Below, one piece after another: positions 1,278 to 8,268 of a stretch of 27,095 nucleotides of DNA. Both the position numbers and the translations under genes were made by a program. The stretch is from Acidobacteriota bacterium (lineage in GTDB: Bacteria; Acidobacteriota; Vicinamibacteria; Vicinamibacterales; UBA2999): contig CANJYC010000001.1 in the NCBI GenBank assembly GCA_947478985.1, positions 1-27,095 on the forward strand, in the 5' to 3' direction. How positions within the stretch are numbered: position 1 is the first letter of the stretch; each line of letters begins with the position of its first letter. The notes beneath the pieces were generated by a model, which saw only the letters and a list, made by a program, of their open reading frames with translations, did not search any database and had not been told where the DNA came from.

Positions 1278-1778
1278 CTAGAAGAGCTCGTACCACCTTC
1301 GCGGTCGTCTGTTGATGACCTTCTGCACGACGGCCACCTGGGCCACCACGCCCTGCGCACCGCTATCCGGCACACCCAGCGACACGAGCAGCGCCTGCGT
1401 GTCCTTCTGCATGGCCTCAATCTGACGTTCGCTCAGGTCCCGCGCCGAGGTCACCGTCCAGAGCTGATGGGCAAGGCGCTGGAAGTTCTGATCCGTCATG
1501 GTTCTGCCCGCCACCACCTCTGACGTTCGGCGCGCAAGCTCAGCGCTGGCCGGCACCCCGCCGGGAACCATGTCGATAAACACCCGGAGATCGTCGGCCA
1601 GATCGGTCCGCGCCTGCGCCTCCCCTCTGGCGACGCTGGCGAGGTCCCGGCTGATGTCGATAATCTGATTCGGCCGGTCTCCGTCGGCGACCGGCAACGG
1701 GCCGTCAGCCTGACGACAGCCGGAGAGCATGGTCAATGCCAGGAGGAGAACGGCGGACAGCGTCACACGTGAAGTCAT
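1278..1778 (-). CDS. Lipoprotein of unknown function (166 aa)
   Basis: From ATG 1778: MTSRVTLSAVLLLALTMLSGC, a lipobox with Cys21. Helical-looking body, C-terminus RRPRRWYELF. Confidence 0.8.
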   Translation of the reverse strand: MTSRVTLSAVLLLALTMLSGCRQADGPLPVADGDRPNQIIDISRDLASVARGEAQARTDLADDLRVFIDMVPGGVPASAELARRTSEVVAGRTMTDQNFQRLAHQLWTVTSARDLSERQIEAMQKDTQALLVSLGVPDSGAQGVVAQVAVVQKVINRRPRRWYELF

Positions 1779-1785
1779 GCTCAAG

Positions 1786-1813
1786 AGCGTACCAAGCCCT
1801 TCAGTGAAGTCAA
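1786..1813 (-). promoter_or_regulatory. Sigma70-type promoter for the lipoprotein, probably leaderless
   Basis: On the minus strand: TTGACT (1813-1808), 16 nt, TACGCT (1791-1786) preceded by TGG (extended -10), then 7 nt to ATG 1778. No SD. Confidence 0.6.
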
Positions 1814-1844
1814 GGGACGTACTGCCGTTCAAAGGCGGTTTGAC

Positions 1845-1874
1845 TTGAGCGTCCGCCCCGTGATCAGTTAGGCT
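1845..1874 (+). promoter_or_regulatory. Candidate his operon promoter
   Basis: TTGAGC (1845-1850), 18 nt, TAGGCT (1869-1874), then 8 nt to the leader-peptide ATG at 1883. Confidence 0.5.
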
Positions 1875-1882
1875 AGGGACTC

Positions 1883-1966
1883 ATGGTTGCCGTCCTCCAC
1901 CACGCGCATCATCATCGCCACGGCCACACGGGCCGGTTGGCGGGATTGCGCGCGCTGAGGGACTAG
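1883..1966 (+). CDS. hisL: His operon leader peptide (27 aa, MVAVLHHAHHHRHGHTGRLAGLRALRD)
   Basis: Manual translation: 7 His codons within codons 6-15. Lies directly upstream of hisI and overlaps attenuator helices. Absent from the ORF track. Confidence 0.9.
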   Translation: MVAVLHHAHHHRHGHTGRLAGLRALRD

Positions 1967-2034
1967 AGCCGGTTACCGCTCGAACCAACCAGCATCGCAG
2001 GCAACCCGCCGGAATTCGCGGCGGGATTTTTTTT
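1903..2034 (+). promoter_or_regulatory. Ribosome-dependent transcription attenuator (1:2 protector, 2:3 antiterminator, 3:4 terminator)
   Basis: 1:2 helix: CGCGCA 1903-08/TGCGCG 1947-52, CGCCA 1916-20/TGGCG 1938-42, CGGCC 1921-25/GGCCG 1931-35. 2:3 helix: GGCGGG(A)TTGC 1939-49/GCAACCCGCC 2001-10. 3:4 helix: CCCGCCG 2005-11/CGGCGGG 2019-25. Confidence 0.88.
2005..2034 (+). terminator. Intrinsic terminator of the his attenuator
   Basis: 7-bp GC stem CCCGCCG/CGGCGGG with a 7-nt loop, followed by A and eight T (2027-2034), 14 nt before the hisI ATG. Confidence 0.92.
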
Positions 2035-2048
2035 GTACGGGTGAAACG

Positions 2049-2375
2049 ATGGACTTTACGAAACTCGACGGGCTCATCCCGGCGGTCGTGCAGGACGATG
2101 CCACTGGCGACGTGCTGATGGTCGGCTTCATGAATCCGGAGGCGTGGGACGTGACGCTGCGCACCGGCTACGTGACCTTCTTCAGCCGCACGCGCAACAA
2201 GCTGTGGACCAAAGGGGAGACGTCAGGCAACAAGCTGGCTGTCCGCGACATCCTCATCGACTGCGACAACGATACGGTGCTGGTGAAGGCCACGTGCCTG
2301 GGCGACGGTGTCGCCTGCCACACTGGTGAACGCACCTGCTTTTATACGCGCGCGGAGGGCGTGACCATTCCATGA
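2049..2375 (+). CDS. hisI: Phosphoribosyl-AMP cyclohydrolase, monofunctional (no HisE domain)
   Basis: [21 protein letters not shown] and [10 protein letters not shown] motifs. 108 aa. Confidence 0.96.
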
Positions 2376-3259
2376 AGCTCAAGCTCGGCATCCCCAAGGG
2401 CTCGCTCCAGGACGCAACCATCCAGCTGTTCCAGCGCGCCGGCTTCAATATTCTCGTCAGCTCGCGATCGTATTTCCCGAGCATCGACGACATCGAGATC
2501 GAGTGCATGCTCATCCGCGCACAGGAGATGGCGCGCTACGTGTGCGACGGCGTCCTCGACGCCGGCCTCACCGGTCAGGACTGGATTGCCGAACACAAGC
2601 TCGGAGGCCAGACCAAACACGAACTGACGAGCGTGACCGACCTGATCTACGCCAAGCAGAGTTTCGGCAAGGTCCGCTGGGTGCTGGCCGCACCCGAAGA
2701 TTCGAAGTACAAGAACGCCGCTGACTTCGCGGGCGCGACGATCGCCACCGAGCTCGTGCGCGTCACGAAAGCGTATTTCGACAGGCTGAAGGTCCCGGTC
2801 AATGTCGAGTTCTCGTGGGGCGCGACCGAGGTGAAGCCGCCGGTGCTCGCCGACGGCATCGTCGAGGTCACCGAAACCGGTTCGAGCCTGCGCGCGAACC
2901 GGCTCAGGATTCTGGACACGGTGATGGAGTCGAATACCCAGCTCATCGCCAATGCATCGGCACTCGCTGATGACTGGAAGCGGACGAAGATCGAGAACAT
3001 CGCGCTGCTGCTGCGGGCGGCGATCGAGGCGCAGGGGCGCGTCGGACTGATGCTGAACGTGATGCGCAGTGACCTGCCCAAGATCCTGGCGCTGCTCCCG
3101 GCCCTGCAGCGGCCCACGATTTCCTCGCTCAGCGATGACGCGTGGGTGGCCGTCAACACCATCATCGAGGAGCGCGCCGTGCGTGACCTCATCCCGAAGG
3201 TCAAGGCGGCCGGCGGCCAGGGGATCGTTGAGTACCCGCTGAACAAGATTGTTGTTTAG
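2372..3259 (+). CDS. hisG: ATP phosphoribosyltransferase, long form
   Basis: [45 protein letters not shown], plus the C-terminal regulatory domain. ATGA overlap with hisI. Confidence 0.97.
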
Positions 3260-3287
3260 TGGGCGGTAGGCAGTGGGCGGTAGGCAG
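3260..3287 (+). repeat. Perfect tandem (TGGGCGGTAGGCAG)x2 filling the hisG-hisD gap
   Basis: Read directly: TGGGCGG TAGGCAG TGGGCGG TAGGCAG between TAG 3257-59 and GTG/ATG 3287/3290. Confidence 0.9.
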
Positions 3288-3289
3288 TG

Positions 3290-4576
3290 ATGAAGATCGT
3301 TGAATCGAGCAATCGACGGGCGGTGAAGGCGCTCCTCGCGCCGGAGCGGGCCTACGACGCGGCGACCGCGCGCACGGTGGCGGCGATCGTCGCCGACGTC
3401 CGGCGGGAAGGCGACCCGGCGCTGCTGAAGTACGCGCGGACGTTTGATGGCCTCGACGGGGCGATGGAGATCTCGCAGGACGAGATGCGCGCCGCCGCGC
3501 GCACCGTGCCACGCGACGTCCGTGCGGCGATCAGAACGGCCGCGAGGCACATTTGTGCCGTGGCGAAGCGCCAGGTGCCACGCGGCTGGCGCATGGCTGT
3601 GGCGCCCGGCGTCACCGTCGAACAGCGCGTGATCCCCCTCGATCGTGTCGGCTGTTACGTGCCGGGCGGCCGCTATCCGCTCCCCTCGTCACTGTTGATG
3701 ACCGCGATCCCGGCCGCTGCGGCCGGCGTGCGCGACATCGTTGCGGTTTGTCCGCGGCCGGAGCCGGTGGTCATGGCGGCAGCACTCGAAGCCGGTGTCT
3801 CCCGCCTGTTCCGGCTCGGCGGGGCGCACGCGATTGCCGCCCTGGCCTACGGCACAAAGACCATCCCGCGCGTCGACAAGATCGTGGGACCGGGCAACCG
3901 CTACGTCGCCGCCGCCAAGGCGCTCGTCGCCGCCGACTGTGGTATCGACTTTTACGCAGGCCCGACCGAAATCGTCATCGTCGCCGCGCGCGGTCCGGCC
4001 GAGTGGATCGCCGCCGACCTCATCGCACAGGCAGAGCACGACCCTGATGCGCGGGCCGTGCTGATCACCCCGAATCGCGCGCTCGCCGCGCGCGTGGCCC
4101 GTGAGGTGGACGACCGTATGCCCACGGACGGCCCGGCGCGTCAGGCACTCCGTGCGCACGGCGGCATCATCATCACGGAGAGCATCGGCGAGGCGATGGA
4201 TCTGGCCAACGCCTCCGCCCCTGAGCACCTCGTGGTTGACGACGATCGACTTGCGGCGATGGTCCGCTGCGCCGGTTCGCTCTTCGTGGGACCGTGGTCT
4301 GCGCAGGTGGCCGGCGACTATGCCATCGGCTCGAATCATGTGCTCCCGACGGCCGGCGCCGCTCGCGTACGCGGCGGGTTGTCGAGCGCCGACTTCGTCC
4401 GGCAGATCACGGTCCAGCGGCTGAGCGAGCGCGGGTTGCGCCGCATCGCACCGACCGTGGTTGATCTCGCCACGGCCGAGGGTCTGCATGGCCATGCCTC
4501 ATCGGTCTCGGTACGCCTCGGCCGTACCTCGGTTCCGGCGCGACGTCGCGTGCGCACGCCGGCGCGGGACAAATAG
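3290..4576 (+). CDS. hisD: Histidinol dehydrogenase
   Basis: YVPGG, GPGNRYV, AGPTE, QAEHD, APEHL, GDYAIGSNHVLPT. Start ATG 3290 (alternative GTG 3287). Confidence 0.97.
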   Translation: MKIVESSNRRAVKALLAPERAYDAATARTVAAIVADVRREGDPALLKYARTFDGLDGAMEISQDEMRAAARTVPRDVRAAIRTAARHICAVAKRQVPRGWRMAVAPGVTVEQRVIPLDRVGCYVPGGRYPLPSSLLMTAIPAAAAGVRDIVAVCPRPEPVVMAAALEAGVSRLFRLGGAHAIAALAYGTKTIPRVDKIVGPGNRYVAAAKALVAADCGIDFYAGPTEIVIVAARGPAEWIAADLIAQAEHDPDARAVLITPNRALAARVAREVDDRMPTDGPARQALRAHGGIIITESIGEAMDLANASAPEHLVVDDDRLAAMVRCAGSLFVGPWSAQVAGDYAIGSNHVLPTAGAARVRGGLSSADFVRQITVQRLSERGLRRIAPTVVDLATAEGLHGHASSVSVRLGRTSVPARRRVRTPARDK

Positions 4577-4578
4577 CC

Positions 4579-5613
4579 ATGCGTCTCCAGGGCTATCCCA
4601 ATCCCGGCGAGGGCCTGCGGCTCCACCTCAACGAGAACACCGGCGGGTGCTCGCCTCGCGTGCTCGAGGCCATCCGCAACATCGGTGCTCGCGATGTGTC
4701 GACCTATCCCGAGTACTCGGAGATCGTGCGCGCGTGCGCGCGCCACTTCGACGTCGACCCGGAGTGGGTCCTCCTGACCAATGGCCTCGACGAGGGTCTG
4801 CTGATGGCCGCGGTCGCGCACATCGCTCGCGTCCGCGCCCACGACGCGGAGACGATTGTGCCGCTGCCGGCCTTCGATCCGTATCCGAACGCGACGGCTG
4901 CAGTCGGCGCGACAGCGATTCTGGTGCCCCCAGGCAAGGACTACGCGTTTCCGACCGAGGCAGTCATCGCGGCGATCACACCACGGACGCGGATGATCTT
5001 TCTCAATACGCCGAACAATCCGACCGGGCAGCTGATCCCCATCGCCGACCTGGAACGGATTGCGTCAGCGGCGCCGGCCTCCGTCGTCTTCATCGACGAG
5101 GCCTACATCGAGTTCGGGGGCACCTCATTCCTGCCGCAGCTGCCCCGGTTCGACAACGTGCTCATCGGCCGCACGTTCTCGAAAGCCTACGGGCTCGCCG
5201 GGATGCGCGTCGGCATCGTCATCGGCCAGCCGCGCATGCTCGACCCGGTGCGCGAGGTGACGCTGCCCTTCAACATCAACGGCGTCGCGAGGGCCGCGGT
5301 CGCCGCCGCGCTTACCGACACGGAGTTCCTGCCCCGTTATGCCGCGCAGGTGACCGAGTCGCGCGAACGCCTCTACGCCGCCTGTGAGCGGCTCGGCCTG
5401 CCGTATTGGAAGAGCGCGGCCAACTTCGTGCTCGTCCGCGTCGGCGACTCCGCGCCGGTCGTCCGTGCGATGGCCGAGCGAAAGGTGCACGTGCGCGACC
5501 GCTCGAAGGATCCGACCACCGCGGGCTGCATCCGGGTCACGGCGGGCATCCGCGAACACACCGACGCTGCGATCGAGGCGCTGGAATCCGTCATGGCAGC
5601 GAGGCAGAAATAA
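4579..5613 (+). CDS. hisC: Histidinol-phosphate aminotransferase
   Basis: LHLNEN, PNNPTG, DEAY and [15 protein letters not shown] (PLP lysine). Operon context. Confidence 0.95.
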
Positions 5614-6209
5614 TGGCGAAGGCACGCACGGCAGCATTCGATCGCCGGACCACCGAAACGCAGATCAAGGGCCGGCTCGCGATCGACGGCACGGGGAAAT
5701 ACGACGTCTCCACCGGCATCCGCTTCTTCGATCACATGCTCGAGCTCTTCACGCGCCACGGTGGATTTGATCTGACGTTGCACGCCAAAGGGGACCTCGA
5801 CGTCGACCAGCACCACACGGTCGAGGACGTCGGCATCACGCTCGGCGAGGCCGTGTCGAAGGCGCTCGGCGATCGCAAGGGCATCAACCGCGCCGGTTAT
5901 TTCCTGATGCCGATGGACGAAACACTCGGCCTGGCTGCCATTGACCTGAGCGGACGCCCGCACGCGGTTGTCGATCTGAAGGTGAAGGTACGCCTCGTCG
6001 GCGATCTGCAGAGCGAGCTCGTGCACGACTTCTTCGACGGCTTTGCCACCGGCGCACGCGCCAACGTCCACGTGAAGGTGCTGTACGGCCGCTCGAGCCA
6101 TCACCACATTGAGGCGGTGTTCAAGGCGTTTGCCCGGGCGCTGCGCGTGGCCTGCGCCCGTGACGCGCGTCTCGCGAAGATGCTGCCAAGTACCAAAGGG
6201 CTGCTGTGA
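5613..6209 (+). CDS. hisB: Imidazoleglycerol-phosphate dehydratase, monofunctional (198 aa)
   Basis: [37 protein letters not shown]. Start moved to ATG 5613 (TAATG overlap with the hisC stop). Confidence 0.97.
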
Positions 6210-6811
6210 TTGCGCTCATCGACTACGGCGCGGGCAACCTGACCTCGGTACGCAAGGCGCTCACCGCGCTCGATGCCGAGTACATGACGCCCTCGTCGCC
6301 GGACGAACTGCACGGCGTGACCGGCGTGATCGTGCCTGGAGTCGGCCACTTTGCGGCCACCGCGGCGCTCGAGGGCGGATGGCGTGACGCGATTCACGCC
6401 TCGACCGAGCGCGGTACGCCGCTGCTCGGCATCTGCGTCGGCATGCAGTGGCTGTTCGAGGGGAGTGAGGAGGCGCCTGAGGTGCGGGGACTTGGTGCGC
6501 TGCAGGGGCGCGTGCGCCGTCTCAAGGGTGATGCCGCCCGTCGGATGAAGATTCCGCATGTCGGCTGGAACGCGCTCGACCTGCCGCGTCCGTCCACGCT
6601 GCTGGCCGGACTCGAGTCGGGCGCCTATGTCTATTTCACGCACTCCTACGCCGCCCCGGTCACCGATGACTGCATCGGCGCAACCACACACGTCGAGCCG
6701 TTTGCGGCGGCCGTCGAGCGGAAGAATGTCTTCGGCGTGCAGTTCCACCCGGAGAAGTCGAGTGATGCCGGCCTGCAGATCCTTCGGAACTTCCTCGGGA
6801 TTGCGCGCTAG
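6206..6811 (+). CDS. hisH: Imidazole glycerol phosphate synthase, glutaminase subunit
   Basis: [21 protein letters not shown] (catalytic Cys), PHVGWN, QFHPEKS (His-Glu). GTGA overlap with hisB. Confidence 0.97.
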
Positions 6812-7588
6812 ATGCTGACCAAACGCATCATCGCCTGCATGGACGTGCGGGACGGGCAGGTGGTCAAGGGCGTGCAGTTTCAGCAGTTGCGCCACGCCGG
6901 CGACCCCGCCGAACTGGCGCGCCGCTACAACGTCGAGGGCATCGACGAGGTCGTGGTCCTCGACATCACGGCCACGCTCGAGACGCGGCAAGCTCTGGCG
7001 CGCACCATTCATGCGGTCGCGCGCGAGATCTTCCTGCCGCTGACCGTCGGCGGCGGGATCCGCTCCGAAGACGACGCGGCGGCGGCGATCGATGCCGGCG
7101 CCGACAAGGTGAGCCTCAATACCGCAGCGCTGCGGAACCCGGCACTCATTACGGCCCTGGCACGCCGCTACGGCAGTCAGGCGGTCATCGTCGCCATCGA
7201 TGCGAAGCGCCGCACGGACCCGGCTGCCGGCGGCGGGGACTACGCGGTCTTCGTCCGCAGCGGCACGTCTGACGCCGCGCGCGACGCGGCCGAGTGGGCG
7301 CGCGAAGCGGAGTCGCGCGGCGCCGGAGAGATTCTGCTCACGTCGATGGATCGCGACGGCACGCGCTCGGGTTTCGACTGCGGGATGACCCGCGCCGTCG
7401 CCGATGCGGTCAACATCCCGGTCATCGCGTCCGGCGGCGCCGGCGGCCTTGAGCACTTCGCCGAGGTCTTTACCGACGGGTGCGCCGATGCCGCCCTCGC
7501 CGCGTCGATCTTTCACTACGCCGACACCAGCGTCACCGAGCTGAAGAAGTACCTCCGTGAGCAGGGCATTCCCGTACGCATATGCTGA
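6812..7588 (+). CDS. hisF: Imidazole glycerol phosphate synthase, cyclase subunit
   Basis: KRIIACMDV, LDITAT, PLTVGGGI, AIDAK, LTSMDRDGT, IASGGAG, ALAASIFH. Confidence 0.97.
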   Translation: MLTKRIIACMDVRDGQVVKGVQFQQLRHAGDPAELARRYNVEGIDEVVVLDITATLETRQALARTIHAVAREIFLPLTVGGGIRSEDDAAAAIDAGADKVSLNTAALRNPALITALARRYGSQAVIVAIDAKRRTDPAAGGGDYAVFVRSGTSDAARDAAEWAREAESRGAGEILLTSMDRDGTRSGFDCGMTRAVADAVNIPVIASGGAGGLEHFAEVFTDGCADAALAASIFHYADTSVTELKKYLREQGIPVRIC

Positions 7589-8268
7589 TCCCCGCCATCG
7601 ACCTCCAGCACGGCCACGTCGTCCAGCTCGTGCAGGGCGAGAAGCTGGCCATCGAGGCGCCGGACCCGGAGCCCTGGATTCAGCGTTTCTCGAGATTTCC
7701 CCGCGTCCAGGTGATTGATCTCGACGCCGCCAAGGGGCACGGTGACAACACCGCGATGGTGACGACGATCTGCGGCCGGCTCTCCTGCCGCGTCGGCGGC
7801 GGCATCAGGAGCGTGGAGCGCGCCCGCGCGGCGCTCTCGACCGGCGCCCATGCGGTGATCGTCAGCTCGGCGCTGTTCCGCAATGGCGAGGTCGATCTTG
7901 CCTTCGCCCGCACCCTCGCCGACGCCGTCGGTGCCGAGCGCGTCATCGCCGCGGTCGACAGCCGCGGTGGTCAGGTAGTCATTCACGGATGGAAGACGCC
8001 GCTGCCGATCACCGCCGTGGAGGCCGTGCGCGCACTCGAGCCGTTCTGCGGAGAGTTCCTCTACACCCACGTCGACAAGGAGGGGCTGATGCAGGGTACC
8101 GACATGGCCGCCATCCTGGCCGTGCGGCGCGCCACAGCACGTCGGCTCACCGCTGCCGGTGGCATCACCACGTGGGAGGAGATCGACCAGCTCGACGCCG
8201 AGGGGGTCGATGCGGTCGCCGGCATGGCCGTCTACACCGGCGCCCTGTCGCTGGACAGAGGGCGCTGA
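7582..8268 (+). CDS. hisA: ProFAR isomerase (HisA/HisF-family TIM barrel)
   Basis: IPAIDL, IDLDAA, VGGGIRS, AVDSRGG.V.IHGW, AAGGI. Last gene of the his cluster, 7-bp overlap with hisF. Confidence 0.88.
   Translation: MLIPAIDLQHGHVVQLVQGEKLAIEAPDPEPWIQRFSRFPRVQVIDLDAAKGHGDNTAMVTTICGRLSCRVGGGIRSVERARAALSTGAHAVIVSSALFRNGEVDLAFARTLADAVGAERVIAAVDSRGGQVVIHGWKTPLPITAVEAVRALEPFCGEFLYTHVDKEGLMQGTDMAAILAVRRATARRLTAAGGITTWEEIDQLDAEGVDAVAGMAVYTGALSLDRGR

Follow-up and report, generated by a model that had tools for sequence, protein, structure and literature searches.

The stretch of DNA analysed here (the window, 27,095 nt in full) contains a histidine biosynthesis operon that is preceded by a short His-rich open reading frame and a GC-rich hairpin with a run of T residues. 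This raises the question whether the ORF encodes the leader peptide of a transcription attenuator operating by the logic of hisL, as a preliminary description of the sequence had proposed, and how translation of such a leader would be initiated. Acidobacteria are a phylum in which almost no functions have been assigned to predicted attenuators (Naville and Gautheret, PMC2965389), and his attenuators have been described for Proteobacteria and newly predicted in some Firmicutes (PMC9413887; PMC2965389). The probable acidobacterial origin of the sequence was judged correctly, as it belongs to a freshwater Acidobacteriota MAG of the order Vicinamibacterales, and its HisG is 80–92% identical to records labelled Vicinamibacterales or Acidobacteriota. 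Our comparative analysis of the sequence argues, with a probability of roughly 85%, for a ribosome-mediated leader-peptide transcription attenuator that would set his-operon expression according to the supply of charged tRNA-His. The features on which this reading is built are collected in Table 1.

Table 1. Positions and properties of the predicted regulatory features upstream of the his operon, given in coordinates of the window
Feature	Position	Strand	Remarks
-35-like hexamer TTGAGC	1845–1850	+	18 nt upstream of the -10-like hexamer; TTGACA/TTGCGC in relatives
-10-like hexamer TAGGCT	1869–1874	+	8 nt before the ATG
Leader peptide ORF MVAVLHHAHHHRHGHTGRLAGLRALRD	1883–1966	+	27 codons plus stop; ATG at 1883, TAG at 1964–1966
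Regulatory His codon cluster	1898–1927	+	7 His in 10 codons; 4 CAC and 3 CAT
Segment 1 (5' strand of the 1:2 helix)	1903–1925	+	inside the His codons; minimum-free-energy fold
Segment 2	1931–1952	+	leader codons 17–24; pairs with segment 1, or with segment 3 via 1937–1952
Segment 3 (3' strand of the antiterminator)	1996–2012	+	overlaps the terminator 5' arm (2005–2011); truncated masked folds
Intrinsic terminator hairpin (segments 3:4)	2005–2025	+	stem 2005–2011/2019–2025, 7 G-C pairs, 7-nt loop
T8 tract of the terminator	2027–2034	+	preceded by A2026
TGTACGG motif	2034–2040	+	immediately follows the T tract; conservation behind the his terminator at least 90% across 46 genomes
his operon	2049–8268	+	hisI, hisG, hisD, hisC, hisB, hisH and two His_biosynth (hisA/hisF) genes; Pfam matches

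The leader ORF and its position in the his operon

The 27-codon ORF with seven His codons that had been noticed from the sequence was found where it had been placed, and the GC terminator with its T8 tract was confirmed at 2005–2034. The His codons occupy 1898–1903, 1907–1915, 1919–1921 and 1925–1927, and with 7 His among 27 codons this short translatable ORF is enriched in codons for the end product of the operon that it precedes. The density exceeds chance: the six frames of the 2.15-Mb assembly contain four stretches of 12 codons with at least seven His, and the his leader is the sole genuine short-ORF case among these four. A His run on contig C256 that was considered as a second short His ORF proved to be the Thr repeat of a lipoprotein read out of frame. 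By a background estimate, at least five His in 12 codons would be met by chance within a 330-nt stretch with a probability of about 2%.

The codons used for His in the leaders differ from those in the genes of the window. CAU accounts for 43% (259/602) of the His codons in 88 related leaders (loci L001–L110) versus 16% (7/43) in the eight window genes. At their third positions, the His codons face G residues of segment 2 in C-G or U·G pairs, and the excess of CAU in leaders could stem from constraints on the structure or from selection for a lower decoding speed.

The terminator separates the leader ORF from hisI (2049–2375), the operon's first structural gene, which starts 14 nt after the end of the T8 tract. 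Within 1500–2600, the hairpin at 2005–2025 with its T8 tract is the only terminator-like site, and its stem, CCCCGCC/GGCGGGG, is nearly invariant among relatives. The upstream neighbour gene (1278–1832) is encoded on the minus strand and divergent, so the terminator does not serve this gene and the leader receives no co-directional read-in from it.

Promoter and initiation of leader translation

Of the 88 leaders, 72 have a hexamer of the form TAnnnT 8–10 nt 5' of the start codon, mostly as TAnnCT (TACGCT, TAGCCT, TAGGCT), and TTGACA or TTGCGC is present 17–18 nt 5' of this hexamer in most of the 82 hexamer-bearing leaders. The promoter columns T12, A13, C16 and T17 in the alignment of relatives (A1) are nearly invariant, and no conserved purine-rich tract or Shine-Dalgarno sequence was detected between hexamer and ATG among the aligned relatives. 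The conserved spacing of the -10-like hexamer places the predicted transcription start within about 0–3 nt of the AUG, and the mRNA of the leader peptide is therefore probably leaderless or nearly so. The near-leaderless initiation suspected in the preliminary description thus gains support from promoter spacing and from the lack of a conserved Shine-Dalgarno sequence.

Alternatively, the attenuator may be real but its leader may be translated from a conventional leadered transcript that is started further upstream. A strict sigma-70 scan of 1500–2600 listed no promoter, TTGAGC included, in keeping with this alternative, and AGGGA at 1875–1879, if part of the transcript, might serve as a weak Shine-Dalgarno sequence. 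However, AGGGA is separated from the ATG by only 3 nt and no purine tract is conserved at this position, the recurrent placement of TAnnnT in the related leaders, mostly combined with TTGACA or TTGCGC, points to a start close to the AUG, and the divergent orientation of the neighbouring gene leaves the leader without co-directional read-in. We therefore consider a leadered transcript unlikely, although clearly less so than the two alternatives to attenuation itself that are discussed below.

Alternative RNA folds and a predicted ribosome-dependent switch

The minimum-free-energy fold of 1870–2040 (-72.7 kcal/mol, z = -2.35) combines the terminator with a helix between 1903–1925 and 1931–1952, reproducing the 1:2 helix of the preliminary description, which includes the regulatory codons. 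The competing antiterminator had been described as a pairing of 1939–1949 with 2001–2010. It exists but extends further, with 1937–1944 pairing with 2005–2012, 1946–1949 with 2001–2004 and 1950–1952 with 1996–1998.

The switch was analysed on nascent RNAs ending at 2012 or 2018, in which a ribosome positioned on His9, His11, His13 or His15 masked the RNA up to 14 nt beyond the A-site. In these truncated folds, a mask on any of the four His codons resulted in the 1937–1952:1996–2012 antiterminator (-30 to -42 kcal/mol). With the mask moved to the stop codon the antiterminator was absent, and without a mask the 1:2 helix was formed; in both of these situations the terminator remains free to form. 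The antiterminator and the terminator exclude each other, and the 5' strand of the antiterminator is hidden by a ribosome that finishes the leader. This reproduces in silico the stall and read-through logic of the hisL type that had been suggested for the locus. All elements of a four-segment attenuator of this type are present in the sequence, and the design is conserved upstream of hisI throughout the order.

In full-length RNA carrying the mask of a stalled ribosome, the terminator was still favoured at equilibrium, indicating that the decision must be kinetic, as in the classical model. Consistently, the switch is visible only in co-transcriptional, i.e. truncated, folds and not in full-length equilibrium folds.

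Conservation in Vicinamibacterales and other Acidobacteriota

Of 29 relatives, 28 have a short His-rich ORF upstream of hisI, in most of them followed by a T-run or a terminator, and an upstream ORF of 15–31 codons with 5–9 His and a terminator was found at about 105 of 107 Vicinamibacterales loci. The 88 leaders that could be delimited have 15–31 codons (median 24) and 5–9 His (median 7). A covariance model of the element (R1) detected it in 107 of the 151 Vicinamibacterales genomes sampled, representing 16 of 19 families, with one copy per genome apart from two weak exceptions; the genome of the window was matched once, at 1895–2039. Divergent but analogous His-rich upstream ORFs with a terminator precede hisI-hisG or hisG in many other families of the Acidobacteriota, including 12 of 12 loci examined outside the order (L116–L127) and about 21 of 35 further loci. 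Examples from outside Vicinamibacterales are MRSLHLHHGHHHHHHAQSVLAAVSGVAK and a frame ending in HHHHHHGPNGSRRCAVSM. The search upstream of hisI and hisG that the preliminary description had recommended found this arrangement in many families of the phylum.

The potential for alternative pairing is shared by the relatives as well. In 87 of them, 83% of the bases in the 5' arm of the terminator were paired to a segment of the upstream ORF when a stalled ribosome was masked, versus 35% with a mask at the stop codon. Shuffled linkers paired 66% of the 5' arm, and the energy of the antiterminator had a median z of -1.7 relative to shuffled controls. In DNA with 67% GC, this result means that energy alone is weak evidence and not decisive. 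The partner of the terminator 5' arm, on the other hand, lies within or at the 3' end of the upstream ORF in 87 of 87 relatives, typically 7–30 nt before the stop codon, and we regard this constant placement in the compared sequences as a stronger signal than the energy. The unmasked transcript already had the antiterminator pairing in about 60% of the relatives, hence the 1:2 helix as default in the absence of a ribosome is not universal.

An alignment of 46 relatives (A1) was used to evaluate the helices, with pairing to slid partners as control. The consensus helices of the 1:2 structure were paired to 95.7–97.3%, and the whole structure including the terminator to 97.4%, compared with 34–51% in the slid controls. 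The consensus antiterminator helix was paired to 76.8% versus 16–44% in its slid controls. The antiterminator register derived from the window itself performed poorly on this alignment, with 58.6% pairing and no advantage over a slide of -1. Segment 3 contains CCC in the window versus CCCC in the relatives, and the consensus register resolved the poor score. Two-sided changes occur at four pairs of the antiterminator, among them a compensatory exchange of CG to UA in five sequences. In the proposed test for covariation, compensatory change does occur, but covariation is modest overall because most of the paired columns are invariant.

Two A·C mismatches are retained in the consensus antiterminator, at columns 113/200 and 116/197 of the alignment, in 36 and 45 of the 46 sequences, respectively. 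Their counterparts in the window, with its CCC in segment 3, are one G-C pair and one bulged A. The mismatches that were kept may tune the strength of the antiterminator.

The conserved motifs of the leader peptide reflect RNA pairing, with the codons for His-Ala-His (CGCGCA) being paired to those for Leu-Arg-Ala (UGCGCG). This bears on the possibility that the ORF encodes a functional small His-rich peptide, for example a metal-binding one, that is followed by a terminator of its own, with the his genes being unregulated. Metals can be bound by His-rich peptides, and both the length and the His content of the peptide are conserved. However, the ORF is always located directly 5' of a co-oriented hisI or hisG and as a single copy per genome, its conserved residues outside the His run track RNA pairing rather than protein constraints, and the terminator 5' arm complements the end of the ORF in 87 of 87 relatives. 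We regard this explanation as highly improbable. Taking the comparative evidence together, we regard the attenuator element as a real, order-wide, single-copy regulatory RNA with a leader peptide.

Terminators and small ORFs elsewhere in the genome

Strict intrinsic-terminator-like sites are rare in this genome, the two strands of the 2.15 Mb together containing about 49, and the his attenuator is thus among the few apparent uses of a canonical hairpin with T tract here. The conservation of TGTACGG after the his terminator in the 46 Vicinamibacterales genomes holds whatever the distance to hisI, and TGTACGG or a near variant is also found 0–4 nt past the T tract at at least 6–7 of the approximately 49 terminator-like hairpins, versus about 0.02 expected by chance. 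The sites besides the one in the window are located on contigs C8 (+8460), C15 (+4111), C38 (-2984), C44 (+673), C92 (-5215) and C193 (+3876). The terminators followed by TGTACGG in this genome are otherwise unrelated, and the heptamer seems to be a lineage motif that accompanies terminators. Two almost identical modules of hairpin and T tract, GAGAGCCGCCAYGAGCAATCRTGGCGGCTTTTTGTTTGTAC, are present at the unrelated loci C44 (+673) and C92 (-5215) and may represent a repeated or mobile terminator cassette.

A scan of the whole genome, in a fragmented assembly that is 84% complete, revealed no other convincing codon-biased upstream ORFs before terminators. A candidate on C92 was the C-terminus of a longer ORF. 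Contig C174 carries, on the plus strand, two tandem 17-codon genes (3413–3466 and 3693–3746) that encode an identical Lys/Ala-rich peptide, MAKKAAKGAKKKAAKKR. Both copies are equipped with a good Shine-Dalgarno sequence and a terminator of their own, with no co-directional gene downstream, and the pair resembles a small basic protein that has been duplicated more than it does a leader peptide.

Relation to known histidine leaders

Searched at the gathering threshold, Rfam matched neither the window nor any of 12 related loci, and the His_leader family (RF00514), with which a comparison had been suggested, was absent from 1780–2120 even at E-values up to 10. Neither Pfam nor NCBIfam contained a family matching the 27-aa leader peptide at E up to 10. 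The literature searched, which excludes the attenuator survey of Lopatovskaya et al. (2010), contains no report of an acidobacterial his attenuator. These results are consistent with the impression in the preliminary description that such a system had not been described in the lineage.

Control independent of translation, whether through a leader-binding protein or through a T-box-like RNA or riboswitch, has precedents in the his operons of Firmicutes and Actinobacteria, which use T-boxes or the HisR repressor (PMC9413887), but is hardly credible here, given that neither a T-box nor any other Rfam family was matched in the window and 12 related loci, that specifier and T-loop architecture are lacking, and that the feature which does not vary is a run of in-frame His codons with its start and stop, for which an RNA-only sensor would have no need.

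The predicted attenuator resembles hisL of enterobacteria in its short ORF, whose run of His codons falls into the first pairing segment, in its location immediately upstream of the operon's first gene, and in the mutually exclusive formation of terminator and antiterminator, by which a stalled ribosome would allow read-through. In contrast to enterobacterial hisL, the run of His codons is broken (HH-A-HHH-R-H-G-H), the interrupting codons providing G and C residues for pairing, a Shine-Dalgarno sequence is lacking and initiation is probably leaderless, and the first gene of the operon is hisI instead of hisG. There is also no similarity in sequence or to the covariance model (RF00514, Pfam His_leader). 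The attenuator of E. coli hisL is built from six segments, A–F, whereas the acidobacterial leader has a trp-like layout of four segments.

His leaders predicted in Firmicutes are known from the Bacillus cereus group, Peptostreptococcaceae and Erysipelotrichales (PMC9413887) and for hisS/hisZ in bacilli (PMC2965389). They share with the acidobacterial leader the lineage-specific peptides with His codons, the terminator and antiterminator hairpins, the detection by comparative genomics and the position outside the His_leader family of Rfam, but the sequence families and the phyla are unrelated. Leaderless leader peptides are known from Deinococcus deserti, where the transcription starts were mapped by dRNA-seq (PMC4007540). 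Besides belonging to another phylum, the acidobacterial case differs in that the start is deduced from promoter spacing; no his leader is described in the D. deserti paper, and the word 'histidine' is absent from its main text (PMC4007540).

Proposed mechanism

Transcription would begin at the AUG at 1883 or 1–3 nt before it, and a ribosome would translate the 27-codon leader close behind RNA polymerase. With plentiful His-tRNA, the ribosome passing through codons 17–27 would hide segment 2 while 1996–2034 is being made, the hairpin at 2005–2025 with the T8 tract would then form, and transcription would stop 14 nt before hisI. With scarce His-tRNA, the ribosome would stall on the seven His codons (1898–1927), which themselves constitute segment 1. 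Segment 2 would thereby be free to pair with 1996–2012 and to sequester the 5' arm of the terminator before its 3' arm exists, and the polymerase would continue into hisIGDCBH(A/F). If no ribosome is loaded, formation of the 1:2 helix would lead to termination. Of this scheme, the analysis shows the sequence elements, the alternative folds and their conservation, and we infer the transcription start site, a translation coupled to transcription and the histidine response.

Four metatranscriptomes were compared with 1500–3300, and only a few short contigs matched, from libraries that may contain DNA; none of them had an informative 5' or 3' RNA end. One contig spans 1953–2201 and thus crosses the terminator, as read-through RNA would, but proves nothing.

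Implications

The mechanism itself is classical textbook attenuation, and the probable leaderless initiation is the only trait that is mildly unusual. The general understanding of attenuation is unchanged by the acidobacterial his leader, which adds a further case of leader-peptide attenuation that apparently uses leaderless initiation. The more comprehensive statement, that an uncatalogued, leaderless-translated His-leader attenuator extends across Vicinamibacterales and, in divergent form, much of the Acidobacteriota, and carries a lineage-specific TGTACGG extension of the terminator that is shared with other terminators of the genome, has in our estimation about even odds of being correct. 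If it is true, sensing of histidine supply depends on the loading of 70S ribosomes at the 5'-terminal AUG of the nascent transcript. The seed alignment (A2) and the covariance model R1 are ready to be used for a new RNA family. For the biology of the group, the predicted attenuator allows the his operon to be annotated with a concrete mode of regulation in a large order of soil and freshwater bacteria, most of them uncultured, and probably in much of the phylum.
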